Origin: Shigella phage CWP003
Sequence record: OL856099
Length of the DNA: 64,000 bases
Direction: 5' to 3' (one strand)
The translations under genes were made by a program, and so were the position numbers. Positions 6,877-45,822 of this stretch are shown here, in pieces (position 1 is the first letter of the stretch; each line of letters opens with the position of its first letter). Under the pieces are notes generated by a model. That model was not told where the DNA came from, ran no database searches, and was given only the letters and a program-made list of their open reading frames with translations.

Positions 6877-7797
6877 ATGACGATACCAATCAGCACGTTT
6901 CCTCTATCTGGACAAACGCCAGTATTGCCTGCTGTATATGCTAACGGTTTGGCGATTGTTTCGGAATTCACATCCGATAAAAACCTGATTGTTCCATTGA
7001 GTCCGCCATTGGCGTCTGGATACAATTCAGTTGGCCAGTTCTTTATGATCGGTAATGATGGCGATTCTACCAGCAAGCCGAATCTGACACTTTCAGTTCC
7101 CAAAATGAACATAACAGACGTGCAGACTGGTTTAACTGCATCTACGATCACCATCGCTTTTGGAGAAGCAGTGATTATAGGCATGGAGTCTGGAGGGTCC
7201 AAGAATGCTGTCGCCGTTAAGGTAGTCAAATCCAGCAGCAACCAATACACACTACCAGCGGCAACGGCTTCTGTTCTTGGCGGCGTCAAAATAGGAAGTG
7301 GCATAAGCGTTGCAGGTGACGGTACAATTAGTGTGACTCAATACTCATTACCGATTGCATCAGCATCAACCTTGGGTGGCATAAAGGTAGGAACGACACT
7401 ATCAATTGATGGTTCTGGCGTCCTTAATGCTGCTGCAAGCACTGTGCAGAACGCAAGCAACAGCGTAAGCAATCCTCCGACAACTCTGGTGAATCTGGCA
7501 ACCTTAAACCTGCCTGCAGGGAAATGGCTTGTGACAGCAAGTCAGTTGACTGTCGCGACAGCAGGAGTTCAAGCGAATACCGGAATTACAGTCAAGCTGT
7601 CAACAAGTAATTCAGATATTACGGATGATGCATTTACAATGTCAGCTGGCATTCGGGCTGCAGGTCGTTTCGGCGGCAATATCCCAACAAAGATAATTAC
7701 TCTTGCCGCGCCTGGCAACGTGTATCTAAACTATCAATGCACAGACGCATTGACATCTACCGTTTACGGACAGATCACCGCAATTAAGTTGAACTAA
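6877..7797 (+). CDS. Structural protein of unknown role
   Basis: Start ATG 6877 (MTIPIST) in frame with track ORF 6808..7797; Ser/Thr/Gly/Val-rich. Confidence 0.45.
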   Translation: MTIPISTFPLSGQTPVLPAVYANGLAIVSEFTSDKNLIVPLSPPLASGYNSVGQFFMIGNDGDSTSKPNLTLSVPKMNITDVQTGLTASTITIAFGEAVIIGMESGGSKNAVAVKVVKSSSNQYTLPAATASVLGGVKIGSGISVAGDGTISVTQYSLPIASASTLGGIKVGTTLSIDGSGVLNAAASTVQNASNSVSNPPTTLVNLATLNLPAGKWLVTASQLTVATAGVQANTGITVKLSTSNSDITDDAFTMSAGIRAAGRFGGNIPTKIITLAAPGNVYLNYQCTDALTSTVYGQITAIKLN

Positions 7798-7807
7798 AGA
7801 GGAAGTT

Positions 7808-7945
7808 ATGCAAAAGATTATTCAGTCACGTTACGTTAAAGTGCGAAATATTAATTGCAACTCTTTGCTTTCTTGGAAATGGGCTGTTTACGACTCGATG
7901 CTGATTGGCGTTTTAGTTGCTGGAGTGCTTTTTAATATTCACTGA
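7808..7945 (+). CDS. Possible small membrane ORF (45 aa)
   Basis: ATG with AGAGGAAG upstream; hydrophobic stretch LIGVLVAGVLF; below the track length cut-off. Confidence 0.2.
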   Translation: MQKIIQSRYVKVRNINCNSLLSWKWAVYDSMLIGVLVAGVLFNIH

Positions 7946-7952
7946 ATCGCCT

Positions 7953-7966
7953 GGCAATGGATTGCC
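7953..7966. other. Perfect palindrome GGCAATGGATTGCC
   Basis: Seen in sequence downstream of the 6877..7797 operon; possible terminator stem or protein-binding site. Confidence 0.35.
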
Positions 7967-7988
7967 GCAGGATTTTACGCGTATAATG

Positions 7989-8256
7989 ACGTATCATCCG
8001 TATCAAGTAAGTAGTTGTTTTCAAAAGAATCTTACGGATGATACGGATGATACGCGTTGCCGCGATACTTTATAGGAATTCAAATAAATTAATTTAAAAT
8101 TATATATCTAATTTAATTTTATTTTTTTATAAACTCTTATATATGAAAAGTATCCGTATCATCCGTATCATCCGTAGCACACCAGTGATAGCGCGGCTTA
8201 TACACTGATACGGATAAAAATACGCCTCATTTTATCCGTATCATCCGTATCACACT
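7989..8256. repeat. Iteron locus 1: tandem and inverted 9-mers ATCCGTATC/GATACGGAT flanking an AT-rich core
   Basis: Seen directly: TATCATCCGTATCA (7991), CTTACGGATGATACGGATGATACG (8031), AT-rich 8080-8150, GTATCCGTATCATCCGTATCATCCGTAGC (8151), TGATACGGATAAAAATACG (8206), TTATCCGTATCATCCGTATCAC (8232). Confidence 0.65.
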
Positions 8257-30884: not shown

Positions 30885-31862
30885 TTAAAAATACTCCATA
30901 TCGGTAATATCACGGAAGCACTTATACAAGGCAGAGCGCGGCACGTCAACTATGCCAAAGTTAAAGAATTTATATGTCAAATACTTGTTTCGATAATTCT
31001 CGCGATTCTCCCAAAGCATTTTTCTCTCTGCCATAGGCATTGAACCAGCGGAGACGCGGAAGGGAATCATTTCACCTTTCTCATCAACATATTTTGGATT
31101 GACAACCACAAATGATCCAAGGTATCCTTTTGCAACTAAGCCTTCAGCCTCTTTCGAACGCTTAGTGCGACCCAACTCATCAATGAATGCTTCGTTGTTA
31201 TTCTCCATCATCTCAACGAAGTCTATGATCAGTCCTTCTTCATCGGTCCACGGCTTGTCCTTCCACACATCACGTGACTTTGGCGTCGCGCGGCCATGCT
31301 TGTATTTGCCCGTCCAAGACTTGCCATACAAGCCTTCATAGCCAAGCTGGTCTGCTTCGATTTGCATCGCCGCGTACTGTTCCATATTTTCGATGTTTCG
31401 ATATTCGAGAGCGCGAAGGAATGGGCGTCGACCATGGTTGATGAGGTGCTGATTGACTTCAGCAACTCTAGCGCGATAGTTTGCATAACGCTTTTCAAAA
31501 GGCAAATCAGGGTCGCTGAAGTCATCAAACACCCACCATGTAAAGTTAGTGATTGCATCAGTGTTCATGCATGCAGTATAGGCCTGTTGCATGACGTTCT
31601 TGTCATTCGGATTACCGTCAATTAGCTCTCCATCAAGTCCGTGAATCAATTCACCCAAGAATAGGAACTCTTTTTTGATTTGAATGTTGCGCAGTGCCAT
31701 GCCGGATGTGCCCATTGGCAAGTTGTCATACGCCATCGCGCGTATTCCATCGACCTTGAAGGATAATCCGCAAGGCAGCGGCACATCTTCGCCGCGCTCG
31801 ATGATTTGTTTACGCTGGCAACCTTTCATTGGTTTTAATGCTTTGATTTCTCCTGCCATCAC
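30885..31862 (-). CDS. ATP-dependent DNA ligase
   Basis: 325 aa; nucleotidyltransferase motif I KVDGIRA (KxDGxR); size typical of phage ligases. Confidence 0.75.
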   Translation of the reverse strand: MMAGEIKALKPMKGCQRKQIIERGEDVPLPCGLSFKVDGIRAMAYDNLPMGTSGMALRNIQIKKEFLFLGELIHGLDGELIDGNPNDKNVMQQAYTACMNTDAITNFTWWVFDDFSDPDLPFEKRYANYRARVAEVNQHLINHGRRPFLRALEYRNIENMEQYAAMQIEADQLGYEGLYGKSWTGKYKHGRATPKSRDVWKDKPWTDEEGLIIDFVEMMENNNEAFIDELGRTKRSKEAEGLVAKGYLGSFVVVNPKYVDEKGEMIPFRVSAGSMPMAERKMLWENRENYRNKYLTYKFFNFGIVDVPRSALYKCFRDITDMEYF

Positions 31863-32452
31863 TCAAACTCCTTATTCATCACTTGTTCCAGCGCATAGGC
31901 ATAAGCCTGATCAGTCGATTTAATAAACGTTCCGTTGTACATCACACCTTTACGGTCCTTGATGTCTTCATAGGCGGCTTGAGCGCAATCAGACAGTCGA
32001 AGTCCATAATCATGCGCTACGCCGGAAAGATAATCGACTGCGGCCATGATAGTGACATCAATATCCATGCTTTGATTTTTAGCAATGGCGTCACCAAGCC
32101 GTCCGAGAGTCTTCGCCAAGCGAAGGATAAAGGAATGAGGGTGAGCGCCTTTGTCAGCGCAACCGCCTCCGTTGATGTCTTCGATTTTTGCACCATTTTG
32201 CGCGGCAAGAATAGTTAACACAACAAGGCAATCACCGATGTCGTCCTTGATTGCGGCTTGCAAATCACAAATGGCCTGCTCTGTATATCCGATTTCAGGG
32301 TCAAAGAACACAAGGTCATGGAGTTGATCCACGTGGTCGGTCAACTCCCCAAACTCGCTAATAAGCTTCGGGTATTGGTCTTTAAGGCCGCAACCTTTGA
32401 TGATGTTACGGTCAGAAGCCCATTGGCGAATGTTTGCATAAATCTGGTTCAT
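31859..32452 (-). CDS. mazG: MazG-like nucleotide pyrophosphohydrolase
   Basis: 197 aa all-helical protein; recalled similarity to phage MazG-family proteins; adjacent to ligase. Confidence 0.6.
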   Translation of the reverse strand: MNQIYANIRQWASDRNIIKGCGLKDQYPKLISEFGELTDHVDQLHDLVFFDPEIGYTEQAICDLQAAIKDDIGDCLVVLTILAAQNGAKIEDINGGGCADKGAHPHSFILRLAKTLGRLGDAIAKNQSMDIDVTIMAAVDYLSGVAHDYGLRLSDCAQAAYEDIKDRKGVMYNGTFIKSTDQAYAYALEQVMNKEFE

Positions 32453-33024: not shown

Positions 33025-33885
33025 TTAAAACTCTTCTGCGTCGGTCGGAGTTTCATTGACAGGACCAGCGGCACCACTTGCTTCTTCCTGCTTGCTGCGG
33101 TCAATGTTAACGTTGCCGCCAACCACGTCGTTGTGGAATGCTTTGGCGACTTCGTACAGGCCTTTGTCCTGCACCAGACCTTCCAGCTCAAACTTCAGGA
33201 CGGACCAGGTGTTGCCGTCTTTGGACTGAGACGCAGTACCCATGCGAACGATGTTCATGAAGGTCGGCGGCGTTTTCAGGCCCTGCGGAGTCTGAACTTT
33301 CTTCTGCTGCAGAGCGGTCATCAGCATGCGAGACGGCTTGATCATGGAAGAAGTCAGAGACAGCATTGCACTACCAAATTCACCAGTTTCTTCGTTCAAC
33401 AGAATCACGAAGTGGTTACGTGTATCTGCGTAGTAAGGTGATTTCTTCTCGTGCACCTTGCCGTTTTCGTCTGGCACAAACACCTTACCGTTGATCTCAA
33501 CAGCGCGGCCTGCCGCGACTTCTGCATCAACGTGCTCTTTGGTGAATTCACCTTTAAAGCCTTTATCGTCGGACTCGCGACCGCCCCAAAGGATGAAGGT
33601 GCGTTTGAATGCGCAAGGGATGATCTGCACGCCCTTCTTGCCGTCATACAATTCACCAGTAACGGTGTTGTACAGCATACCAGCTTTTGCGCCAGGAACG
33701 TGTTTTGGATCATCTTCGTCGACCATCGGAGACATCTTTTGCAGTACGACGATAAAAGGAATGGCATAAGCGTCGGCATCGGCACCTTCAAAACCAGCGC
33801 CAAAATCGGTCATATCGACAAAATCAGCCATAGCGGACATCTGGGTGTTTTTTGCTGCAACTTCGGTAGTTTCTTTCTTAGACAT
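33025..33885 (-). CDS. Putative ssDNA-binding protein (T7 gp2.5-like architecture)
   Basis: 286 aa; acidic C-terminal tail ending in Phe (...ETPTDAEEF); sits in the replication operon. Architecture-based inference only. Confidence 0.35.
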   Translation of the reverse strand: MSKKETTEVAAKNTQMSAMADFVDMTDFGAGFEGADADAYAIPFIVVLQKMSPMVDEDDPKHVPGAKAGMLYNTVTGELYDGKKGVQIIPCAFKRTFILWGGRESDDKGFKGEFTKEHVDAEVAAGRAVEINGKVFVPDENGKVHEKKSPYYADTRNHFVILLNEETGEFGSAMLSLTSSMIKPSRMLMTALQQKKVQTPQGLKTPPTFMNIVRMGTASQSKDGNTWSVLKFELEGLVQDKGLYEVAKAFHNDVVGGNVNIDRSKQEEASGAAGPVNETPTDAEEF

Positions 33886-33944: not shown

Positions 33945-34502
33945 TTACTTTTTGCTTTTAGGCAAGGTTATTTTAGCTTCTTTATACTCAAAAACGCTAA
34001 TATCTTCACTAACTGGATTACCCGCTTCCAGCTGTTCTTTAACAAATGACTTCAGTGTAGCAGAATGAACGCCTTGTTTCAACGTGGCTTCAACACCGTC
34101 TTCACGCAGCGCGGCAACAATCTCTTGCGCTTGCTCGATTTCTTCGCGACCGAACTCAGCCGTGACGCTGGACTTGATCAAGCCGCCGTAACCGTTGTTG
34201 ACGAGCCAATCGAATACCTTCAATTCATTTTCTTTCTTGATTGAAGCATTTACTTTTGACTCGACCTTGATTTTGGTCTTGTCTTCAAGCTTGATTTCGG
34301 ACACGCCAAGCTCATCCATGACGCCAGGAAGCAGAACAGTTTTGATTTCACTGATGCGCTGCTTTTGCATATCAGCTTCATCTTCAAGCTCTGTCAAAGC
34401 TTCTTGGCGTTCTGCCAATTCCGATACTAAGCGCGCAAGGCGCTCTTGAATGCTCTCAGGAGCGACCTGCGGCAAATCATCTTCCCAATTAATATTGCTC
34501 AT
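33945..34502 (-). CDS. Hypothetical acidic protein
   Basis: Track ORF; position in the replication/recombination block. Confidence 0.4.
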   Translation of the reverse strand: MSNINWEDDLPQVAPESIQERLARLVSELAERQEALTELEDEADMQKQRISEIKTVLLPGVMDELGVSEIKLEDKTKIKVESKVNASIKKENELKVFDWLVNNGYGGLIKSSVTAEFGREEIEQAQEIVAALREDGVEATLKQGVHSATLKSFVKEQLEAGNPVSEDISVFEYKEAKITLPKSKK

Positions 34503-36360: not shown

Positions 36361-36779
36361 GACAATTCCTCTAAATACTTGATGATGTGATGAATAGTGC
36401 CCTTCACGATTATCTCACGTTGAACGTCTGCAATATTATAACGCTTTAATTCAATCGAAGGGTGGACTAAATAAAACATCTTCTCAGAATCGACTTTAAG
36501 CAAAACAAATGATGGGTATTTCCAATCATTCCACGAAGAAAGAAAGCTGCACTGACCTTTCTCAAATGCATTTCTGAAAGGTGCAGTGGTGGCCCTTGCA
36601 GGCCACGATTCAAAGAACTTCATTTCAAGCCAAAAGCCGCGCCCTTTCCGGTTGGTGCCGATTACGTCCGGCACACCATCACCCGTCATTGATTCGATTC
36701 TTTGAAGCTTCAAGATTGATTCTGAATGCTTCTTCAAAGGCACGAATATGTATTTCTGTTCACGGTTATTTGTTGCCAT
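36357..36779 (-). CDS. VRR-NUC domain nuclease
   Basis: 140 aa; GVPDVIG...GFWLEMKF matches the PD-(D/E)xK-like VRR-NUC core; coupled to SNF2 as is typical. Confidence 0.65.
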   Translation of the reverse strand: MATNNREQKYIFVPLKKHSESILKLQRIESMTGDGVPDVIGTNRKGRGFWLEMKFFESWPARATTAPFRNAFEKGQCSFLSSWNDWKYPSFVLLKVDSEKMFYLVHPSIELKRYNIADVQREIIVKGTIHHIIKYLEELS

Positions 36780-39663
36780 CTGGATACACCTGTTTGATCA
36801 CGTCGACGATAAACATGTCAATACCTTCAAGCTTGCGGCCTTTCATCAGAAAGAATGCGCCGTTCCCGACGTTCTCTGCAATGTACTTACCGTATTTCTG
36901 GAACTTCTCTGGGCGAATCCTGAAGCGCATTGGCGAGTCGGTCGAATCGTCCTTGCACATAAGGTCAATGAACTGAGTCTCAAGCTTGTTTCCATACTGG
37001 TCAAACTCTGCGTAGCGGCCATCAGCTTGAAGACCCTTTTTAAGTTTGCCGTGCTTTGTATAAATGCCGCGCTCAAGACGTTTACGGATGCGTGTCGCTT
37101 CGTTCTCGTCAGCCAGCACTTTCTTGGTCAACTTGCCGATTACTATTGCACGCTCGTCATCGCCGACTTCCTTCATCTGGCGTATTGAAGCACCGGAAGT
37201 AACGCCAATCAGATAGGGGTCATTATACGCCCAGCCAAACTTGGTGTGCATCTCTGTAAGGTCGCCGTATTTGACTTCAGCATTGGCCAATGCATCCTTT
37301 TGTTTTTGCGTTAAGGTTCCGGCTTCACGCGCTTCGATGTACTTCATCGCCTTCACCATTCCGTACCCTTTGGCATTCATTATGCCGCCGATTAGCTTTC
37401 CGTTAGCGATGGTCCAGTTCATTGAAGAGTGATCAGGGTCGATTGGCACATAATCCACGCCTTCCTTTGCAAGTTCACGTAATATCGCAATCGTCTGGTC
37501 TTCGTCCTTAGCAGCGCGTAAGCAAGCAGCGGCAAATTCCAACGGGTAGTGTCGTTTAAGCCACAAGGTCCAGTAAGTCACGACCGCGTATGACACGGAG
37601 TGTGACTTGTTAAAGCCCCATGACCCGAACGTCGCCATCGCCTGCCAAAGCTTTCTTGCATCCGCTTCCGGTACGCCGTTATTTATTGCGCCTGCAACGA
37701 AGTCTTCGCCAAGCTTGTTAAAGTATTCCTCACCCTTACGACCTGACATCGCCTTACGCACAGCTGACGTTTTCGCCCAGTCGAATGAACCAATCTCTTT
37801 AACCACGGCCATGATTTGCTCTTGGTAAAGAAACACGCCATAAGTCTCTTTTAAGTACGGCTCAAGCTGCGGCACGTCGTACTCAATCGGCGCACGTCCT
37901 GCCGCGCGTTCAATGTATTTCTGGGCCATACCGGACGACAACGGGCCAGGTCGGCCAAGTGCTGTCAGGTTATCGATTTTGTTAAAGTTATCAACGTGCA
38001 CAAAGTTGGTCACTGAGCGTACAGCGTCGCCTTCAAACTGGAAGATGCCTGACATCTTGTTTTCGTTAAGGATGTCAAGGACGCTTTGGTCATCAAGCTT
38101 GATTCCGTACAGCGTTTCAGCATCTATCACGCCAGTATCAGAAATGATTCCGAGGGTGCGAAGACCCAATGCATCAAGCTTCAAAAGGTTAAGGTATTCG
38201 CTGTCAGGCTTATCAATTTGTGCAATCCCTTCCGCCGTTACCGTACAGTAATCAGAGATTGGGTCATTACAAACGATGATTCCCGCTGCGTGAACGCCAG
38301 TGTGGGAAGGGTGAATCTCAAGGTCACCCATGCATCGCGCGGCATCGGGATATTTAGCCACAAACTCTTGGCCCGTGGTCGTTGTTGCAAAGGTGTCCTC
38401 CAGGCCGTGGCCATAACGGGCGTCACCGGATGAGTATTCAAGCAATGCGTTTTTAATGTTGGCCGTTTCGTGATATCCAATGTTGAATTTCTTACCAACC
38501 TGAGCCATTACTGAGTTGGCCTTAAGCGTGTTGATGTTGCCAAGTTTTGCAACGTTCATTTCGCCGTATTTTTCTTTAAGGTAATCAAACACCATATAGC
38601 GTTTGGTATCCTCAAAGTCAATATCAATATCAGGAAGGTCTGCGCGGCTTACGTCAATGAATCGGGCAAACAGTAGCTTATACGGGATTGGGTCGACCTC
38701 CGTGATGCCGAGGCAATAACAAACCAGTGAACCAGCCGATGAGCCGCGAGCGGGTCCGACGAGCATTTTTGTTTTTGCGAATCGTACAAGGTCCGCTACC
38801 ACCAGAAAGTATGAGTCGAAATCTTTCAGCTGAATCTGGTGAATCTCTTCGTTGAATCGGTCCTCATATTCCTGAGTCCATTCTTTGATGTGACCTGCCT
38901 TAAGGCGGTACTCCATCCCCTCACGAGCAAGCTTTACCATGTCACCAGCAAGGTGGATAATCGGTGCCTTGCGCAGCTTCAGGTCAAGCCCAACGATTCC
39001 ATTTGCAATATCAACCGCATTGGCCGTTGCTTGATTCAACTCGTCTTCGGTCAGGATTCCTTTAAGCTGTTTGCGCAAGTCTTCCGCGTCAACGATGCAG
39101 TGCGGCTTAACCGTGTCTCGAACTTCCCATGCATAAGCAAAGTCAACGTGCTCAGGTGAAGGCATGTGGTTGTATCCGGTTAAAACCAGCGGCCTTCCGT
39201 TGCTGCGGTGAGCCAATACCTGGCGCTTGGCCAAAAGGAACGATGATGGGTTGACGTCTATATAATCATAGTCCTCTGGCCGCAGCAGCTCCACGGCCCC
39301 GCCACAGAATTTAACGACGCCATCGAGCGCCCCGAACTCTGCACGGGTCAGTCCGCCGCGCTGTGTTGCAAGCGTGGTCGCGTTGTAAAAGGATTTCAGG
39401 TCAAGCGCCAATATCCAAGCCTTCGGTTTGAATCCCTTTTTCGGGTCCGCATCAGGGTCAATGATTGGAATCTCCATACCGAACATAGGCTTGATATCAT
39501 TCTTCTGACATTCCTTTTCCCATCGAACGTGACCCCATGTATTGTTATCAACTAATGCCGCGACTTCGCAGCCCAACTCTTTGAGCCGTGCTATAATTTC
39601 AGGATGCCGTCCATATACTTCTTTGAACGTGTAACCGCTGCGAACTCTCAATTGTGGAAACAT
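36766..39663 (-). CDS. dnaE: DNA polymerase III alpha-like replicative polymerase (DnaE family, PHP domain)
   Basis: 965 aa; N-terminal PHP-like region (VRSGYTFKEVYGRH) and overall DnaE-like core. Confidence 0.8.
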   Translation of the reverse strand: MFPQLRVRSGYTFKEVYGRHPEIIARLKELGCEVAALVDNNTWGHVRWEKECQKNDIKPMFGMEIPIIDPDADPKKGFKPKAWILALDLKSFYNATTLATQRGGLTRAEFGALDGVVKFCGGAVELLRPEDYDYIDVNPSSFLLAKRQVLAHRSNGRPLVLTGYNHMPSPEHVDFAYAWEVRDTVKPHCIVDAEDLRKQLKGILTEDELNQATANAVDIANGIVGLDLKLRKAPIIHLAGDMVKLAREGMEYRLKAGHIKEWTQEYEDRFNEEIHQIQLKDFDSYFLVVADLVRFAKTKMLVGPARGSSAGSLVCYCLGITEVDPIPYKLLFARFIDVSRADLPDIDIDFEDTKRYMVFDYLKEKYGEMNVAKLGNINTLKANSVMAQVGKKFNIGYHETANIKNALLEYSSGDARYGHGLEDTFATTTTGQEFVAKYPDAARCMGDLEIHPSHTGVHAAGIIVCNDPISDYCTVTAEGIAQIDKPDSEYLNLLKLDALGLRTLGIISDTGVIDAETLYGIKLDDQSVLDILNENKMSGIFQFEGDAVRSVTNFVHVDNFNKIDNLTALGRPGPLSSGMAQKYIERAAGRAPIEYDVPQLEPYLKETYGVFLYQEQIMAVVKEIGSFDWAKTSAVRKAMSGRKGEEYFNKLGEDFVAGAINNGVPEADARKLWQAMATFGSWGFNKSHSVSYAVVTYWTLWLKRHYPLEFAAACLRAAKDEDQTIAILRELAKEGVDYVPIDPDHSSMNWTIANGKLIGGIMNAKGYGMVKAMKYIEAREAGTLTQKQKDALANAEVKYGDLTEMHTKFGWAYNDPYLIGVTSGASIRQMKEVGDDERAIVIGKLTKKVLADENEATRIRKRLERGIYTKHGKLKKGLQADGRYAEFDQYGNKLETQFIDLMCKDDSTDSPMRFRIRPEKFQKYGKYIAENVGNGAFFLMKGRKLEGIDMFIVDVIKQVYPDGNK

Positions 39664-40205
39664 TATTTACTCCAGATGTCATATACGCCAATTTGTTGGC
39701 AGACTTTGTGCAGTAATATTACGTCGTCTAATGCACGGTGTTTCTGTTCATATTTTCCGAAATATAATTCATACAGCTCTTGAAGCTTAACTCTTCGGCC
39801 AAAAATAGGCAAGGTTTGCTCGACTGTACAAATGTTTATTTCTGGAAAATTAACATCACCAAGTGTAAGACCTTCGCGCTGTAGTGCATAATCAAGAATG
39901 TTCTTATCGAACGCATGGTTGTGCGCGATAGTTGCATCAGTCTTCTTGAAGATTTCTTTTAGCTGCGGAACGAAATGGATGAATGGTGGATTGCACTCAA
40001 GGTCTTCATTTGTTAATCCGGTAATCTTTGTGATGATTTCTTCAATCACAATTTCAGGATTAATTATGAACTCGAAAGTTTCAAGAATCTCTTTTCCATC
40101 CGTCAACAGGCCTGCAAATTCAATAGGGCGCGGCTGCATCCCAAGCGGCGCTTTCGGGTGCACGGTTAATCCGGTTGTTTCGAAGTCATAAGGGAGAAAT
40201 AACAC
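39663..40205 (-). CDS. DnaQ-like 3'-5' exonuclease (epsilon-like proofreader)
   Basis: 180 aa; Exo I motif LPYDFETTGL, later ...HNHAFDKNILD and ...HRALDDV; stop overlaps the dnaE start by 1 nt. Confidence 0.75.
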   Translation of the reverse strand: MLFLPYDFETTGLTVHPKAPLGMQPRPIEFAGLLTDGKEILETFEFIINPEIVIEEIITKITGLTNEDLECNPPFIHFVPQLKEIFKKTDATIAHNHAFDKNILDYALQREGLTLGDVNFPEINICTVEQTLPIFGRRVKLQELYELYFGKYEQKHRALDDVILLHKVCQQIGVYDIWSK

Positions 40206-40259
40206 ATTAGCCTCCTACAAAAAGGCCGCCCATTAGGACGGCCACAGATTCACGATTCG

Positions 40260-40811
40260 TTATACAGTGTACGGAGTACCGTCTTGATTCAACCGCACGA
40301 TGAACTTAAGGTCGACACCAATGATTTCACGCGTATCAAAGATCACATAGTTGTAACGACGCTGACCAGCAATGTTTGGGTTGGTGTGAGAGTCGGTCAC
40401 AACTTCCTGCGCAACCTGAATGCCTTCTTCTTTAAAGAACTTGCGCCATTCAGCAAGTTCAGCGGCAGTCACGTGCATACCAAGATGGCTAACCTGATTG
40501 TCGTGCGCATCGATGTATTCGATGTTTTCGTGAATCCAGTTGCAACCTTTTGTATAGTCAAGAATTTCAAGCTCAAGAGGCTTACCAGCTCCGCCATCGG
40601 TGCCGTTGCCAGCCTGATAGTTGAAGCGCAAGTCAGCTTCGTTGGTGCAATCGCCGCGCTGACCCTTAAAGACATCAGCTTCAAATACGCGACCAGTAGC
40701 AACAACGTGATCATGGAACCATTCTGTCAGGCCGATTTTAGCCAGGAAATTCTGTGCGCGCTGAGCACCTGGAATTGACAGGGCGATTTGTTCAATTTTA
40801 AAATGTGGCAT
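40260..40811 (-). CDS. Hypothetical protein (possible small-molecule-binding enzyme)
   Basis: 183 aa track ORF at the edge of the enzyme cluster; no confident motif. Confidence 0.4.
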   Translation of the reverse strand: MPHFKIEQIALSIPGAQRAQNFLAKIGLTEWFHDHVVATGRVFEADVFKGQRGDCTNEADLRFNYQAGNGTDGGAGKPLELEILDYTKGCNWIHENIEYIDAHDNQVSHLGMHVTAAELAEWRKFFKEEGIQVAQEVVTDSHTNPNIAGQRRYNYVIFDTREIIGVDLKFIVRLNQDGTPYTV

Positions 40812-40901
40812 TTTGTTTCCTTAATTAAATATTATTGATTAATTACTGTGTTGTCTTCGTCCTGTTTTTCAGGAGCAGCGACAACTTCAAATGTTCTTGA
40901 T

Positions 40902-41585
40902 TTATTTACCAAATGGAATATCAGTACCAGACATAAAGCGCCATGCGCCCGTAATTAAGATATGGCGAATGAAGTCAGCAATTACTTGCGGCTCAGTCTC
41001 CAATCCATTCATCAGCGCCTTTTTCTGGTATTCAGCAGCATACTCAGGAGTCCAGCCGCGAGTCGCGCAAACAGCATCTTCAATCTGTTTGGACATGCCA
41101 GTACCACGTAGCTTGTTAGGACTAATAGAGAATACCGTGATCCCGTATTTAGGCGTAAGCTCGTGAGCCATCTGCTTGCTAATCATGAGCGCAGCAGCCT
41201 TGGAAGCATTATAACACAAGCTGGACGTCATAGGAATATGCGCAGCGTTGGAAACGATGTTGATCACAAAACCTTTGTTGTCAATAAGACTTTTCAGCGC
41301 GGCCTGAGTCGTGTTGACGAAAGAGAAGGCGTTGGTGTGCATAACGCGATTGAACTCTTCGTAGTTAACATCTTCGAACCAGTTGTTGGAGTTGACGCCA
41401 GCGCAGTTGATCAAGCCTTCTACGTCGTATTGAGAGAGAAGCTCTTTCATCTGTTTCGCGTTACGGATGTCATAGCCGTTCTCCAAATCAATACCGACAA
41501 CTTCATGACCGTAAGCGCCAAGGGTGTCAAAAATGGATTTACCAAGACCGGAATTGCAGCCAGTTACAACAATTACTTTTTTCAT
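40902..41585 (-). CDS. Short-chain dehydrogenase/reductase (SDR)
   Basis: 227 aa; cofactor-binding TGCNSGLGKSI (TGxxxGxG) and catalytic YNASKAA (YxxxK). Confidence 0.75.
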   Translation of the reverse strand: MKKVIVVTGCNSGLGKSIFDTLGAYGHEVVGIDLENGYDIRNAKQMKELLSQYDVEGLINCAGVNSNNWFEDVNYEEFNRVMHTNAFSFVNTTQAALKSLIDNKGFVINIVSNAAHIPMTSSLCYNASKAAALMISKQMAHELTPKYGITVFSISPNKLRGTGMSKQIEDAVCATRGWTPEYAAEYQKKALMNGLETEPQVIADFIRHILITGAWRFMSGTDIPFGK

Positions 41586-41650
41586 TTATTTATCCTTTTT
41601 GGACTTCGTTTCGATGAGATAAATATAACTCATCGAAACGCACAAGTAAA

Positions 41651-42523
41651 CTATTTATTGAAATTAATATTATGGGTGTTGACAAGACGTTCACACATGG
41701 CGCTGTAAACACCATCATCGTGTATTGAGTCTTCGTGCTTCAGGCCGCTGATTGCGAAGCGTGTAAGCTTGACAATCTTAAGCTCGAACAGATGCCACAT
41801 GTGGTAGTCTTCCGGCGTTTTCAACGTCACGCCATTAGGGAAAAGCACCTGCATAACCTGACCTACCATCACAGCGTTATCGCCATAGACCGCGTTGCGC
41901 TCACGGAAGGTTGCTGCCATCGCATCAAGAATATCGGCGGCAGTTGCCGGAGATTGTTCAACTTCCACAGCCTTAGTCTCTTCTTGCCCTGTTGCACTTG
42001 GATCAATTGCTAATTGTTGCACCACTTCACCTGCCTTGCAAAGATTAAATGTAAAAGCGATTTTATTTTGAGCAACGGAATTATAATACAATGCTTCATC
42101 TTGCATCCGCGCGAGTACGTCTTGTCGGTCGTCGAATACATTGATGATTCGATAATCGCCGTGCCGCAATGCGTGCGACAGCCATGCAGATTTCATAATA
42201 GTTGATGGACGTTTGTCGCCATAGTCTCTCATCTTGATTGTAAATTCATCAAAAGGGAAAACATTGTCCAGACGTTCAAAAGTCACTTGTCTGTATTTTT
42301 CTGGCCTTGCAGTCCAATATTCAACCGCCTCACCGCGAAGAGAGGCCGACTCTACTGCTGATGCAATGTGAGGATAGAACTGATCATAACCAATACCGCT
42401 GTGATAATCATCATAGTCTGACAACGGACCTGCCACCTTGATGCGGTCTAAGCGCCAACGGTCATCAAACAGCGTTCCGTCAAGGTCGAATACGTTTAAG
42501 ATTTCGCTGTTTTTAATGCTCAT
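41651..42523 (-). CDS. HAD-superfamily phosphatase
   Basis: 290 aa; motif I VFDLDGTLFDD (DxDGT) near the N-terminus. Confidence 0.6.
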   Translation of the reverse strand: MSIKNSEILNVFDLDGTLFDDRWRLDRIKVAGPLSDYDDYHSGIGYDQFYPHIASAVESASLRGEAVEYWTARPEKYRQVTFERLDNVFPFDEFTIKMRDYGDKRPSTIMKSAWLSHALRHGDYRIINVFDDRQDVLARMQDEALYYNSVAQNKIAFTFNLCKAGEVVQQLAIDPSATGQEETKAVEVEQSPATAADILDAMAATFRERNAVYGDNAVMVGQVMQVLFPNGVTLKTPEDYHMWHLFELKIVKLTRFAISGLKHEDSIHDDGVYSAMCERLVNTHNINFNK

Positions 42524-43323
42524 CCTTTTGATACTCCATCTTTAGCAACTGGATTGTTGGTGATTGGCATCGCACTCCAAAACTGGATGCGCAACTCTTC
42601 TTGCTGTGCCGTGGTATCCATCCAATCACGATACCAAGGGCAATGGGCTTTACCGTGACGAGGAAATGCGCACTTACCCATACCAATGCATTGCGGCTGC
42701 AGTAATGGATTCGCCCAAGGGTGCACCTTGAGGACTTCCGCAACCATTGCGCGGAATACTTCTTGATACTCTCCTTGCGTGCGCGTGCACAAGCGGTTTG
42801 ACGCCATCTGCTGCAGCGTGCGCAAGTTGAACTTTGCCATGATATGCGTTTGCATATTAGAAGGCAACACGGCACGTGCATCTTGAATCTCTGCGCCAGC
42901 CGCGCGAAGCTCTTGATACAAAGCGTCGATAGTCGCCATCGCATCATCCCACTTCTCTGCCAGTTCAGCTGCCTTCTCGTCATGGCGAGTCCATCCCTTT
43001 GGATCATCCTCTGGGTAAGTGAATTTAGCAGGACGAATCGCATCAAATGCAGACGACTCCTGAGCGCGGCTGGTGCGTTCTTGATATGCGCCTGTGCGTG
43101 TGCGTACCATCTGATGGGTCATGTTCTTTGATACAGCTGTGATATCAAAGATATAGTCCACAAAGTCAAAAGGCGACTTGATTGTATCAAGCATGTAGCG
43201 CCAATGCTCTTGCTTCTCTGATTCCGTCATCTCAGAGACAGGCTTACCAGTCATGCGCGTGTTCTTTGTTTCCAGCAAAAGGTCAAGTGCATCTTGGGTG
43301 TATCGAATTAATTCAACTTTCAT
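42520..43323 (-). CDS. ThyX-like flavin-dependent thymidylate synthase homolog with divergent signature
   Basis: 267 aa; VRTRTGAYQERTSRAQ aligns to the ThyX signature RHR-x7-S-x-R with His-to-Thr and Ser-to-Thr changes; a second ThyX-like stretch LRTLQQMASNRLCTRTQGEYQEVFRAM. From memory of the family, not a search. Confidence 0.55.
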   Translation of the reverse strand: MKVELIRYTQDALDLLLETKNTRMTGKPVSEMTESEKQEHWRYMLDTIKSPFDFVDYIFDITAVSKNMTHQMVRTRTGAYQERTSRAQESSAFDAIRPAKFTYPEDDPKGWTRHDEKAAELAEKWDDAMATIDALYQELRAAGAEIQDARAVLPSNMQTHIMAKFNLRTLQQMASNRLCTRTQGEYQEVFRAMVAEVLKVHPWANPLLQPQCIGMGKCAFPRHGKAHCPWYRDWMDTTAQQEELRIQFWSAMPITNNPVAKDGVSKG

Positions 43324-43336
43324 TTTAATTGTCCTA

Positions 43337-43783
43337 TTAACGGTAATTCACTAGTTGCTGATCACCAGAGAAGGTGCAATGATAAACGAATTGTGCGTTA
43401 TAAAGCAACTGAAAACTTTTCTTTGGTTCATTATTAGAACTCATTGATGTAAAGATTTCTGCACCAGAACGGTTTTCACCAATCAGATTGATAAAGCCGC
43501 CAGTTGAACGAGGTTGAACGAAAGTGAAACGTTGCATCCACGGAGTCCGGTTGACACCTTTTCCGGTGAATCCTTGAATCTGAATATTCAGACCTTCTTG
43601 CTCATTCACACCGATGTAAGTGGTAATCTTCGCACCAGTCGTTGCTGCGGTCTTACCGTCCATCGCTTCGCAATCGTAAACAGCGATTGAATCGGAAGTA
43701 CGGATGGCGGCTTCAGTCGCTTCCATATACATGGTGCCGAGAATAGCAGTTGCGGCAAGCGCGATTCCAGTGATTCGTTTCAT
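43337..43783 (-). CDS. Secreted protein with signal peptide (function unknown)
   Basis: 148 aa; N-terminus MKRITGIALAATAILGTMYMEA; no enzyme motif recognised. Confidence 0.5.
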   Translation of the reverse strand: MKRITGIALAATAILGTMYMEATEAAIRTSDSIAVYDCEAMDGKTAATTGAKITTYIGVNEQEGLNIQIQGFTGKGVNRTPWMQRFTFVQPRSTGGFINLIGENRSGAEIFTSMSSNNEPKKSFQLLYNAQFVYHCTFSGDQQLVNYR

Positions 43784-43848
43784 TTTCGTTTCCTCTATGA
43801 GTTCTGCTTCAATGATTAAAGTATACGCCCATTGAAGCAGAAAGCAAA

Positions 43849-44844
43849 TTATTTATTAGCAATATAAGCAAATTTTTGATAGTTATTTGCTTTGATGAGT
43901 TTTTCGACTTCAACAAGGTCATGAGCGACGTCATCAAGCAAGATATTGCGCCAGGTCGCGAATCGACCGACACTAAACACGTTTAAATCCATAGTCAGCT
44001 GCAGGAGTAGGGCGTGTCGCAAGTCTTTCGGAATGTCGACAATCTTGCCATATTTCTGGTCGACCTTTTCAACTTCTTCAAGAGCAATGTCACTCCATGA
44101 AAGGCCAAAGGCCGTCAACACTTCGTCGACTTCTGCGCGCAGCTTCATGTCACGGTAACGAGTGATGCCGCCTGCGGCTTCAACTGCAGCTTCACTCACG
44201 CTGACCAAAGGAATTGTTTCAATGATAAGCGTGTCACCAGTAATTGATGCGCGGTAAGTTCTGACGGAGTAGTCAGGGAAGTAAATTGTCTGATACAAAT
44301 CACACTTACGTTTAATCTTAAAGCGGTAAACGCGAATGTTTGCTTTATCAAATGAGAAATCAAGCTTTTGATCAATTCCAGCAAGCTTCATCATGACTGG
44401 CAGCGGCGACGTGTTGATGATTGGCGTCTCGCTATAGCCGCAAAGAGTATCAACCGGAGTATTAAAGAATATGCGGTCACCCAGTTTGTCGACAAGCTGA
44501 TCATAAAAGTCATCAGGCGCAATATAACGCGTTGCAGTCTTAAGCTTCATGATTGAACGGCTGCCAAATTGATTGGTGACCTTCATGGAATACATATTGG
44601 CAAGGTTGATTGGGCAATGGTCGTGATAGTAGTTGCCGCGAAAATACACAGCCTTGTCAACTGTCACGGCCTTAAAAGGGATTCCGGTAATACGGCTTAC
44701 TTCTTCGCCGCGAAAGCGTAGCAGCGCCTTGTGCTGTTGCGCTCGTTCCCCTGCTTCGTACACAATAGAGTTCGGGAAGTGACACGCGGTGATAAGTCCT
44801 GCCAATCCGCCGCCGATAATCATTACAGGTTGTTTCATGTTCAT
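43849..44844 (-). CDS. FAD/NAD(P)-binding Rossmann-fold oxidoreductase
   Basis: 331 aa; N-terminal dinucleotide-binding motif VMIIGGGLAGL (GxGxxG). Confidence 0.6.
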   Translation of the reverse strand: MNMKQPVMIIGGGLAGLITACHFPNSIVYEAGERAQQHKALLRFRGEEVSRITGIPFKAVTVDKAVYFRGNYYHDHCPINLANMYSMKVTNQFGSRSIMKLKTATRYIAPDDFYDQLVDKLGDRIFFNTPVDTLCGYSETPIINTSPLPVMMKLAGIDQKLDFSFDKANIRVYRFKIKRKCDLYQTIYFPDYSVRTYRASITGDTLIIETIPLVSVSEAAVEAAGGITRYRDMKLRAEVDEVLTAFGLSWSDIALEEVEKVDQKYGKIVDIPKDLRHALLLQLTMDLNVFSVGRFATWRNILLDDVAHDLVEVEKLIKANNYQKFAYIANK

Positions 44845-44976
44845 TTGTCCTTTGTGGGTGATATGAGAAGTATAATAGCTAAATTATTTTACAGCAACAA
44901 GTCATTTTATTTAGTACAGATGAAAAAAGACCCACAACAAGTGTGGGTCAATTACCGCTGCATAACCGTCCTAAGG

Positions 44977-45822
44977 TTATTCCGCTTGATCACCGTCTTC
45001 GGCATCTTCGTTGGGTTCAACATCGACAAACTCGATGTGGCCCATCTCTTCCAGCTTGCTCAGGTAGGAGCGAACGGAAGCGCCAAACAGTTGATCTTTA
45101 ACTTTTTCGCCCAGCTCATCGATAGACTGCGCCACGCCAACTTCGCCTTCTTTGATCGCCGCCAGAACGCGTCCACGGGTGGAATGCTCTTGCGGCTGGC
45201 TCAGGCCATTGCCAGTGTAGATGAAGTGAGTAGCTTTTGCACGACGTTGACCGTTTGCCTTTTTAGCGGCCTTACGTTCTGCGATGGCTTTGCGACGTTC
45301 TTCAGCTTCTTTCTTACGCTGTTCTTTCTGTTGTTCTGCAGCTTCTTTCGCCGCAATCTTAGCAGCTTCACGCTCTGCCTTGCGTTTCGCTTTAGCTTCT
45401 TCTTTGGCCTTCTCTTTTTCGGCCTTCGCTGCAGCACGGGCTTGATCACGCTCTGCTTTCTTAGCAGCAGCTTGTTCAGCTTTCAGGCGCTTGGCTTCTT
45501 CTTTAGCCTTTGCCTTTTCGATTTCTTTTGCTGCTTTAGCGGCTTCACGCTCTGCTTTCTTAGCAGCAGCCTTTTCTGCACGCTCTTTAGCTTTCTTAGC
45601 TGCTTCTTCAGCACGCTTCTGAGCCTTCTCATCAGCAGCCTGCTTGCGTTTCAGGGCAGCTTCTTCACGCTTGGCTTGTTTTTCCTGCTCACGCTTCTGG
45701 CGTTTTTCTTCGGCTTCTTTCTTTTTAGCCAGACGTTTTTCTTCAGCCACGCGACGGCGTTCTGCTGCAGCTGCTTGCTTTTCTTCTTTAGATAATACTT
45801 TGATTGCTTCGGCCATATTCAC
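44977..45822 (-). CDS. Lys/Ala/Glu-rich histone H1-like protein with globular C-terminal domain
   Basis: 281 aa; about 180 residues of KAAE/KAKE-type repeats, then a globular C-terminal region and an acidic tail (EDAEDGDQAE). Confidence 0.55.
   Translation of the reverse strand: MNMAEAIKVLSKEEKQAAAAERRRVAEEKRLAKKKEAEEKRQKREQEKQAKREEAALKRKQAADEKAQKRAEEAAKKAKERAEKAAAKKAEREAAKAAKEIEKAKAKEEAKRLKAEQAAAKKAERDQARAAAKAEKEKAKEEAKAKRKAEREAAKIAAKEAAEQQKEQRKKEAEERRKAIAERKAAKKANGQRRAKATHFIYTGNGLSQPQEHSTRGRVLAAIKEGEVGVAQSIDELGEKVKDQLFGASVRSYLSKLEEMGHIEFVDVEPNEDAEDGDQAE

Follow-up and report, generated by a model that had tools for sequence, protein, structure and literature searches.

The cassette of six minus-strand genes at positions 40,260 to 44,844 of a 64,000-nt stretch of the Shigella phage CWP003 genome (OL856099, a Wifcevirus; this whole stretch is referred to here as the window) is probably a new flavoenzyme-based pyrimidine or DNA modification module, a reading to which we assign a probability of about 0.55. 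It is also the best candidate for the genes behind the sugar-like thymine modifications of related Pseudomonas phages. A C5-modified thymidine, if made, would shield the phage DNA from restriction. The original prediction for this region, a multi-step pathway leading to a non-canonical pyrimidine or sugar-nucleotide, finds partial support in the clade-wide changes to the ThyX protein, in the co-inheritance of the genes, in the modified thymidine of related phages and in the restriction resistance of Wifceviruses, but the secreted protein it included lies outside the conserved set and the ThyX arginines are kept.

Organisation of the cassette

Each of the predicted ORFs was found on the minus strand at its expected position, although they number six and not the five consecutive genes first counted. 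The set is flanked on both sides by strong terminator-like hairpins, and the annotation of phage Mansfield places terminators at both corresponding positions. Its location inside a replication operon was confirmed: genes for an exonuclease and a DnaE-type polymerase adjoin the cassette, and the operon also encodes a ligase, helicases and a MazG-like protein. The features are as follows:

44929..44949, minus strand: terminator-like hairpin at the upstream cassette boundary, 8-bp stem and T-run, between the genes for a Lys/Ala-rich protein and the FAD protein
43849..44844, minus strand: FAD-binding flavoprotein, 331 aa, phrog_4828, a distinct phage family
43337..43783, minus strand: 148-aa ORF with a signal-peptide-like N terminus, no family match
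42520..43323, minus strand: variant ThyX, 267 aa, Pfam Thy1 E 2.9e-30
41651..42523, minus strand: HAD phosphatase with four-helix domain, 290 aa, Pfam HAD_PNKP E 5.4e-8
40902..41585, minus strand: classical SDR, 227 aa, adh_short E 1e-31, phrog_3142
40260..40811, minus strand: putative VOC (glyoxalase/dioxygenase-fold) protein, 183 aa, from family-level Glyoxalase_4 matches and the depositors' InterPro annotation
40224..40243, minus strand: terminator-like hairpin at the downstream cassette boundary, 8-bp stem with 7 GC pairs and T-run, between the VOC and exonuclease genes
39663-40205, minus strand: DnaQ-like proofreading exonuclease, downstream of the cassette
36766-39663, minus strand: DnaE-type polymerase, downstream of the cassette
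31859..32452, minus strand: MazG-like nucleotide pyrophosphatase, phrog_1992 E 5e-63, in the same replication operon

The ThyX and HAD genes overlap by 4 nt. The HAD protein had been described simply as a HAD phosphatase, which agrees with its score of 33.5 bits against PF25109 (cut-off 27.6) and with the DxDxT nucleophile, present as DLDGT (residues 13-17, 42473-42487), in a capless N-terminal domain of the PNKP type; overlooked was a second, C-terminal four-helix domain resembling DUF6378/DUF3310 (~41654-41956), which is more conserved than the N-terminal HAD part. The SDR was correctly recognised, and scores 110.4 bits against PF00106 with the classical cofactor (TGCNSGLG, residues 8-15) and catalytic (YNASK, residues 125-129) motifs. 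The 183-aa protein, previously listed as an unknown, is a putative member of the VOC/glyoxalase superfamily, judged from its family, 7 of 11 members of which match Pfam Glyoxalase_4 (best E 9.3e-6); the window protein itself reaches E 0.09, and a sequence search of solved structures (PDB) returned no relative for it. The 148-aa ORF is the secreted protein of the original prediction. It was seen in Wifcevirus loci only, its place being taken in Pbunaviruses by five small ORFs, and it is probably a Wifcevirus-specific insertion and not a member of the pathway. The MazG-like pyrophosphatase, which is present too in Pseudomonas phage F8 and Gordonia phage Ranch, may serve as an accessory that controls the nucleotide pool.

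The variant ThyX and its partner flavoprotein

The ThyX protein matches Pfam PF02511 over its full length (105.9 bits, cut-off 24.8; profile positions 2-191 of 191) but falls short of the NCBIfam equivalog TIGR02170 (81.8 bits, cut-off 87.9). In place of the signature RHR-x7-S-x-R-Y, alignments show RTR-x7-T-S-R-A throughout the clade, and the deviation had been read exactly: residues 74-87 (43063-43104) are RTRTGAYQERTSRA. In T. maritima numbering the clade-wide changes are H79T, Y91A, H53I and S88T, whereas the H, S and R-Y are retained in an alignment of T. maritima ThyX with four control phage ThyX proteins, which themselves carry KHQ or KHK where RHR is expected. The RHR residues of ThyX bind FAD, with the His among the contacts, and the Tyr acts as a "lid" that covers uracil C5 and flavin N5 (PMC6514825); deviant-motif ThyX proteins have been reported as functional, to judge from the title of a study cited in the same paper. 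Which catalytic residues survive had been left to an alignment with known ThyX proteins, and the answer is divided. The RHR histidine, the lid tyrosine and the His53 equivalent are lost, but the dUMP-binding arginines are all kept, with R74, R76, R86, R150 and R177 invariant and aligning with R78, R80, R90, R147 and R174 of T. maritima. The likeness to the T. maritima, M. tuberculosis and H. pylori enzymes lies in the FAD- and dUMP-binding positions (Q71, R74, R76, R86, R150, R168, R177 and Q183-x-E185), and the differences in His to Thr and Ser to Thr within the motif, Tyr to Ala at the lid, Ile at the position of T. maritima His53, and Gln in place of Glu144. The cassette protein further adds four clade-specific, conserved cysteines (Cys179, Cys212, Cys218 and Cys228) and a clade-specific C-terminal extension of ~60 aa that terminates in NPVAKDG, and it is tied to a partner flavoprotein. 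With its arginines intact, the protein may, as judged from sequence, be a working thymidylate synthase that simply makes dTMP.

The partner flavoprotein matched no Pfam or NCBIfam model even at E<=10, UGM models (Pfam GLF) included; its PDB sequence-profile match covers only the dinucleotide-binding motif, and hhalign against E. coli Glf aligned the first 20 residues alone. The fold looks UGM/PPOX/amine-oxidase-like. The protein shares with UDP-galactopyranose mutase (Glf/UGM) an N-terminal GxGxxG followed by Glu, here GGGLAG at residues 11-16 (44797-44814), and the part compared at the C terminus, a GR...Y/W...D motif, reads GRFATWRNILLDDV (43927-43968), its family pattern G-R-[FL]-A-x-[WY]-[RK]...D-x-V resembling GRLAEYKYYDMHQVI of E. 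coli Glf. An independent HHpred match to 1I8T recorded in the phage Mansfield annotation supports the UGM likeness. The protein has 331 aa against 367 in E. coli Glf, a difference of ~35 residues.

Co-inheritance and modified thymidine in related phages

A tblastn search of 50,697 phage records detected the flavoprotein in 361 and the ThyX clade (E<=1e-20) in 363, with an identical genus breakdown; T. maritima ThyX as query found 2142 records, with Pseudomonas outside the top genera. Hosts of the phages that carry the flavoprotein include Pseudomonas, Xanthomonas, Rhizobium, Ralstonia and others, and the FAD, ThyX and HAD genes also occur together in a Cronobacter podophage, a 40-kb Ralstonia phage and 206-kb Rhizobium phages. 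Across unrelated phage types, this ThyX, the UGM-like flavoprotein and the HAD protein are inherited together almost one-to-one. Synteny was scored in 45 metagenomic IMG/VR loci that continue for 6 kb or more downstream of the FAD gene, where ThyX was present in 44, the HAD domain in 42, the four-helix domain in 44 and the exonuclease and DnaE genes in 44. The SDR and VOC genes occurred as a pair (32 and 33 of the 45 loci, respectively), and the dominant, almost invariant order was FAD, ThyX, HAD with four-helix domain, (SDR, VOC), exonuclease, DnaE. Because the identical genes and order are shared by dozens of phage contigs that are only distantly related, the grouping is not due to chance; the synteny could reflect vertical inheritance of one replication module and not functional coupling. 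Microbacterium and Gordonia phages possess an analogous set, comprising an FAD protein in which the GR..W..D motif recurs, a HAD protein, DnaE and a long ThyX-like protein that carries RQR, in addition to matches to the SDR (E 1e-23 to 1e-28), VOC (E 4.5e-13) and four-helix domain (E 1.7e-18).

The virion DNA of Pbunavirus phages F8 and 14-1 has been reported to contain a sugar-derived hypermodified thymidine, in a 2025 END nuclease preprint (PMC12191111) that assigns the modification to no biosynthetic genes. Derivatives of 362 and 390 Da were interpreted as a tetritol and an aldopentose derivative, with approximately a quarter of T modified, in a TG context (PMC12191111). Both phages encode orthologues of the FAD, ThyX and HAD/four-helix proteins in the order of the cassette, with exonuclease and DnaE genes adjoining. 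The adducts of F8 and 14-1 differ, even though the two phages share 97% identity in the FAD protein and 94% in ThyX. The partial, TG-specific replacement in F8 implies a sequence-recognising step on DNA, for which the cassette offers no evident DNA-recognising enzyme. The Pseudomonas Pbunaviruses lack the SDR and VOC genes, whereas the Wifcevirus cassette has both. The phenotypes also differ, as the Pbunavirus modification leaves EcoRI sites cleavable (PMC12191111) whereas Wifceviruses are EcoRI- and EcoRV-resistant in vivo (PMC11990801). The Wifceviruses Bas98-101 resist restriction-modification systems and have no known mechanism of protection (PMC11990801). The window contains 13 EcoRI and 6 EcoRV sites, so site avoidance is not the cause of this resistance. 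The Wifcevirus pattern of resistance to EcoRI and EcoRV with sensitivity to EcoP1 does not fit a TG motif.

Proposed pathway and its alternatives

The most likely product of the module would be a thymidine bearing a sugar- or polyol-derived group on C5, similar to that of the Pbunaviruses. The variant ThyX is predicted to bind dUMP, as its phosphate- and uracil-binding arginines are all kept, together with reduced FAD, and would install or activate the C5 carbon. Replacement of the lid Tyr by Ala and loss of the His53 equivalent would leave the reactive site between C5 and N5 open, so that a nucleophile might intercept the exocyclic-methylene stage or the site might take a carbon donor bulkier than methylene-folate. 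The sugar part would then fall to the UGM-like flavoprotein, which could form a UGM-type sugar adduct at flavin N5 or dehydrogenate its substrate in the manner of PPOX and amine oxidases. The capless HAD phosphatase would dephosphorylate a sugar-phosphate-derived side chain or the nucleotide, and the SDR and VOC proteins may tune the side chain in its redox state or its stereochemistry; since both are absent from the Pseudomonas Pbunaviruses, Wifceviruses are expected to make a product distinct from the F8 and 14-1 nucleosides. The adjacent DnaE and exonuclease would replicate DNA that already contains the modified base or later receives it.

A more conventional account, which we regard as unlikely though worth weighing, is that the genes are an ordinary nucleotide-supply and repair set in a phage with canonical DNA, with ThyX a thymidylate synthase of divergent sequence but normal function that raises dTTP for rapid replication, the HAD protein a nucleotidase or PNKP-like 3'-phosphatase for DNA ends, and the FAD, SDR and VOC proteins auxiliary redox or detoxification enzymes. 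The strong Thy1 match, the retained dUMP-binding arginines and the company of ligase, helicases, DnaE and MazG-like protein are consistent with this, as are the depositors' gene names (thymidylate synthase, polynucleotide kinase/phosphatase and FabG-like reductase) and the KHQ and KHK deviations of other phage ThyX proteins. It does not explain why the lid Tyr, the RHR His and the His53 equivalent have all been lost together, nor the sub-threshold TIGR02170 score, and gives no account of why a UGM-like flavoprotein belonging to no described family tracks this ThyX clade one-to-one in myoviruses, podoviruses and jumbo phages. F8 and 14-1, moreover, do have hypermodified thymidine, and the only other recognisable enzymes in the annotated F8 genome are replication proteins, an endolysin and the MazG-like pyrophosphatase.

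If modification is instead placed entirely on DNA, the FAD protein would oxidise the thymine methyl group at specific sites, a polyol or sugar would be added, the HAD, SDR and VOC proteins would process the attached group, and ThyX would be a normal dTMP supplier. The replacement of approximately a quarter of T in F8, specific to TG, points to such a post-replicative, sequence-specific step, and T followed by G makes up 26.4% of T in the window. Dehydrogenating enzymes (PPOX, amine oxidases) are among the fold neighbours of the FAD protein, which is basic (pI 8.5) with many invariant Arg and Lys residues, and capless PNKP-type HAD phosphatases usually act on macromolecules. We nonetheless consider this scheme improbable: we know of no flavoprotein that oxidises thymine in DNA, domain searches found no DNA-binding or base-flipping domain, and neither the four cysteines nor the way in which the ThyX active site is remodelled in this clade would be explained. 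It seems very unlikely that the enzymes act on host metabolites or envelope sugars, diverting a nucleotide-sugar pool or remodelling surface glycans, with restriction resistance arising from other unrecognised proteins. The Wifcevirus receptor is the O16 O-antigen (PMC11990801), and genes for UGM and a galactofuranosyltransferase lie in the K-12 O16 cluster. Together with the UGM-like fold, the generic small-molecule folds of the SDR and VOC proteins, which could in principle act on sugars, and the putatively exported 148-aa protein, this lends the idea some appeal. The wide host spread of the FAD protein, however, indicates that it is not tied to a single glycan, and its gene is consistently grouped with ThyX and replication genes across loci. 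The exported ORF is lineage-specific, and the SDR is of the short classical type and not the extended NDP-sugar type, its Epimerase and RmlD matches being limited to the N-terminal Rossmann part.

As a modification module, the cassette can be compared with the known thymidine hypermodification pathways of SP10, PhiW-14, ViI, M6 and PaMx11, which employ a ThyA-type dUMP hydroxymethylase, a 5-hmdU DNA kinase and aGPT-Pplase transferases, together with PLP, radical-SAM or FAD tailoring enzymes (PMC8989533, PMC12191111). Neither the proteins of the operon nor the annotated genomes of Wifceviruses and F8, in a scan that took in some of the small hypothetical proteins, yielded a recognisable ThyA-type dUMP hydroxymethylase, P-loop 5-hmdU kinase, aGPT-Pplase, PLP, radical-SAM or TET/JBP enzyme or glycosyltransferase. 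The synthase of the cassette is of the ThyX and not the ThyA type, and the group appended in its Pbunavirus relatives is sugar-like and not amino-acid-derived. What the systems share is a thymidylate-synthase-superfamily enzyme beside tailoring enzymes that include a flavoprotein, set among replication genes, with the same predicted outcome, in which part of the thymidine is replaced by a C5-substituted form and restriction is thereby blocked (PMC8989533, PMC12191111).

Composition of the cassette and its flanking genes

The region at 40260-44844 is 100% identical to the corresponding region of the Wifcevirus Escherichia phage vB_EcoM_WFH, and 93-98% identical to that of ~25 further Wifcevirus genomes. 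The original prediction of a minus-strand enzyme gene cluster at this position was correct, except that it counted five genes where six ORFs are present. The ThyX, HAD_PNKP and adh_short assignments were confirmed by Pfam and PHROG scans.

ORFs of the cassette
43849-44844, minus strand: FAD/Rossmann protein, 331 aa
43337-43783, minus strand: ORF with a signal-peptide-like N terminus, 148 aa
42520-43323, minus strand: ThyX homologue, 267 aa
41651-42523, minus strand: HAD phosphatase carrying an additional C-terminal domain, 290 aa
40902-41585, minus strand: classical SDR, 227 aa
40260-40811, minus strand: probable VOC protein, 183 aa

The ThyX and HAD genes overlap by 4 nt, and strong terminator-like hairpins (44949-44929 and 40243-40224) exactly bracket the six ORFs; the curated annotation of phage Mansfield has a terminator at each of the corresponding places. 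The cassette is followed at its 3' side by a DnaQ-like exonuclease and a DnaE polymerase, and preceded at its 5' side by genes for a Lys/Ala/Glu-rich protein and for a Dda-like helicase. The former protein (44977-45822, minus strand; phrog_4765) is a histone-H1-like protein of 281 aa (K51, A65, E51, R25; pI 9.6) with a conserved C-terminal ~90 aa. In most of the related loci, those of the Pbunaviruses included, its gene is the direct 5' neighbour of the FAD gene, and it could be a DNA-coating protein tied to the module. The opposite strand has a 354-aa ORF at 44731-45795, which was rejected as a low-complexity artefact. The 148-aa ORF between the FAD and ThyX genes occurs only in the Wifceviruses, five small ORFs occupying this position in the Pbunaviruses, and may be a moron, e.g., a superinfection-exclusion gene. 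Elsewhere in the replication operon, Pfam matches were obtained for two conserved proteins, to Pam3_Gp34 (33025-33885, minus strand, E = 4e-86) and to a DUF7307/Pam3 gp33-like protein (33945-34502, minus strand, E = 2.6e-37).

The cassette proteins

Residues of the ThyX homologue were read from its alignment to Thermotoga maritima ThyX and from clade alignments. Q71, R74, R76, R86, R150, R168, R177, Q183 and E185, the counterparts of FAD- and dUMP-binding residues in solved ThyX enzymes, are retained. The His of the RHR motif is replaced by Thr75, the motif Ser by Thr84, the Tyr following S-x-R by Ala87, and Glu144 by Gln; Ile stands at the counterpart of T. maritima His53, a residue whose role was reportedly described by Koehn et al. 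in 2012. The RHR residues of ThyX form hydrogen bonds to the phosphate and ribityl groups of FAD, and the tyrosine forms a "lid" above uracil C5 and flavin N5 (PMC6514825). His, Ser and R-Y are retained in T. maritima ThyX and in all four control phage ThyX proteins (from Yersinia, Escherichia EcM-vB1, Rheinheimera and Synechococcus phages), which have no FAD-protein partner; KHQ or KHK replaces RHR in three of these four. Against TIGR02170 the homologue scores 81.8 bits, under the 87.9-bit equivalog cut-off, and a tblastn query with T. maritima ThyX returned 2142 phage records with Pseudomonas (292 Pbunavirus records) outside the top genera. By these residues, controls, score and search result, the ThyX homologue is a member of a distinct, remodelled clade that is predicted still to be able to bind a uridine mononucleotide. 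The protein contains exactly four Cys residues (179, 212, 218 and 228), all of which are conserved, together with a C-terminal extension, in the long-form clade; short forms lack both the extension and Cys179. This pattern suggests a putative Cys4 metal site (Zn or Fe-S) near the catalytic Arg177.

The sole PHROG match of the FAD protein is to a family of unknown function, and sequence and profile searches of Pfam, NCBIfam and PDB detected only its GxGxxG motif. Alignment by hhalign to Glf, the UDP-galactopyranose mutase (UGM) of E. coli, covered 20 residues, and an exhaustive profile search with the family recovered only its own members, of ~300 aa, with no bridge to a characterised family. 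The family, a new one among flavoproteins, comprises 1138 clusters at 50% identity.

In the HAD phosphatase, the HAD domain belongs to the capless PNKP/LNS2 type. Conservation is higher in the ~100-aa C-terminal domain of this protein (41654-41956, minus strand) than in the HAD domain; AF2 modelled the C-terminal domain as a four-helix bundle (pLDDT 90), for which structure comparison found no informative neighbour. Its orthologues show recurrent sub-threshold matches to DUF6378, and the Cronobacter orthologue a significant match to DUF3310; in Ralstonia phage PY059YO380 the domain is apparently a separate ORF. The 183-aa protein probably belongs to the VOC superfamily, with a Glyoxalase_4 match in 7 of 11 family members; a family-profile search found no PDB relative. 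The SDR and VOC genes always occur together and are missing from the Pseudomonas Pbunaviruses.

Distribution and gene order in other phages

By tblastn, 361 of 50,697 phage records contain the FAD protein and 363 contain a ThyX of this clade (E ≤ 1e-20); the two sets break down identically by genus. In the Pbunaviruses, the FAD, ThyX and HAD/four-helix genes adjoin the exonuclease and DnaE genes, and the FAD/ThyX/HAD trio is also clustered in a Cronobacter podophage, a 40-kb Ralstonia phage and 206-kb Rhizobium phages. Homing-endonuclease genes (Seg-like, HNH) were observed in or beside this block in two distantly related phages, Rhizobium phage RHph_TM2_3B (7909-8559) and Cronobacter phage Ss1 (9271-9717). 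A scan of IMG/VR yielded 489 relatives, and the 45 loci extending 6 kb or more 3' of the FAD gene were used as a synteny sample. ThyX was present in 44 of these, HAD in 42, the four-helix domain in 44, SDR in 32, VOC in 33 and exonuclease with DnaE in 44. The order FAD>ThyX>HAD>four-helix>SDR>VOC>exonuclease>DnaE is dominant (27/45 loci), with nine more loci alike except for the absence of SDR and VOC. These neighbourhood counts derive from strict single-pass searches, which replaced a jackhmmer version that showed drift.

Next to DnaE, phages of Microbacterium (Krampusvirus) and of Gordonia (Lambovirus) have a comparable set, consisting of an FAD protein (with the motifs GAQYLH and GRYG.WKKG), HAD, SDR, VOC and a free-standing four-helix protein, which in Microbacterium phage TinyMiny (g59) matches the domain of the window with E = 1.7e-18. 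The ThyX-like proteins of these actinophages are unusually long (467 and 351 aa), with RQR for RHR and Phe for the lid Tyr.

Actinophage loci
Microbacterium phage TinyMiny, 4775-8091: gene set; 7444-8091: four-helix domain region
Gordonia phage Ranch, 2802-6693: gene set; 4481-4813: four-helix domain region
Actinophage sequence L012, 23290-24693: long ThyX-like protein
Actinophage sequence L013, 667-1722: long ThyX-like protein

Modified DNA, a proposed pathway and known systems

According to a 2025 preprint (PMC12191111), thymidine derivatives with masses of 362 and 390 Da occur in virion DNA of the Pseudomonas Pbunaviruses F8 and 14-1, where they take the place of about one in four T residues, in a TG context. 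Its authors interpreted them as derivatives of a tetritol and of a cyclised aldopentose, and described phages such as F8 and 14-1 as being without known modification genes. Arithmetically, 362 equals dU + pentose - H2O + 2H and 390 equals dU + hexose - H2O, so that both masses would be compatible with a C5-C-linked sugar chain and equally with an O-linked hmdU adduct. Our literature search found no paper connecting the cassette genes with modification. In F8 and Bas99, beyond replication proteins and the endolysin, a MazG-like pyrophosphatase was the only recognisable enzyme left, and no further enzymes turned up when the larger hypothetical proteins of F8 were scanned. The Wifceviruses Bas98-101 resist restriction, including by EcoRI and EcoRV, without a known mechanism (PMC11990801). 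The window contains 13 EcoRI, 6 EcoRV and 5 EcoKI sites, and site avoidance therefore does not explain this resistance. Sites for HindIII and for ApaLI, FspI, NdeI and BsgI, enzymes with TG in their recognition sequences, are likewise present in the window. Per-strand counts over the 64 kb depart from expectation for GATC (93 observed vs 247 expected), TCTAGA (1 vs 18) and AAGCTT (56 vs 18).

With a probability of roughly 55%, we read the cassette as a flavoenzyme-based module for pyrimidine-nucleotide or DNA modification, whose product would be akin to the sugar-substituted thymidines of the Pbunaviruses. In the mechanism that we infer, the variant ThyX would still bind dUMP and flavin while the space above C5 and N5 is left open, the UGM-like FAD protein would plausibly handle the sugar moiety, the HAD phosphatase would take off a phosphate, and SDR and VOC would tailor the side chain. 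Such tailoring predicts a different adduct in the Wifceviruses. In both the ThyX and UGM enzyme classes, N5 of the reduced flavin serves as a covalent carrier of carbon. An unprecedented flavin-based carbon addition, in which the lid-less ThyX and the UGM-like flavoprotein join a sugar-derived chain to C5 of deoxyuridine ahead of HAD dephosphorylation and SDR/VOC tailoring, is an unlikely route; its linkage would be a C-C bond or would run via the ThyX methylene intermediate.

Several points weigh against the modification module. The synteny possibly reflects one replication module inherited vertically. The cassette might also be an ordinary dTMP-supply and repair set, a reading in which we place less confidence. 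The TG specificity in F8 implies recognition at the DNA level, for which the cassette offers no obvious candidate. The FAD protein alone might perform the modification, wholly on DNA, which we likewise rate below the joint action of the cassette enzymes. The TG motif is also mismatched with the Wifcevirus restriction pattern, and the F8 and 14-1 adducts differ despite nearly identical enzymes (94-97% identity; 81% for HAD and 78-89% for the small ORFs); comparison of the two phages for a determinant of this difference gave nothing decisive. Action of the cassette on host glycans or metabolites, finally, is considered less probable than modification of pyrimidine nucleotides or DNA.

If the flavin-based carbon addition were true, the module would be the missing biosynthetic route of Pbunavirus DNA hypermodification, would account for the unexplained genome protection of the Wifceviruses, and would reach across more than a thousand phage lineages, actinophages included; with 1138 FAD-family clusters, the candidate module is widespread. 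Pbunaviruses rank among the phages used most often for therapy against Pseudomonas, and the Wifceviruses are coliphages that replicate fast and resist restriction. If the modification genes were known, the host range of these phages and their susceptibility to nucleases that depend on modification, such as the END family, would be explained, and concrete genes can now be named for knock-out or transplant. The hypermodified T of F8 and 14-1 and the restriction resistance of Bas98-101 are brought under a single, directly testable hypothesis, with a possible new reaction type for flavin and thymidylate-synthase enzymology.

Thymidine hypermodification in phages is a known kind of system, yet the cassette gene set shares none of its known components. 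No ThyA-type hydroxymethylase, 5-hmdU kinase, aGPT-Pplase, TET/JBP enzyme or glycosyltransferase was recognised in the operon or in the annotated Wifcevirus and F8 genomes, and there is a real chance that the cassette encodes new chemistry. Its core consists instead of the remodelled ThyX together with a flavoprotein whose family is new.
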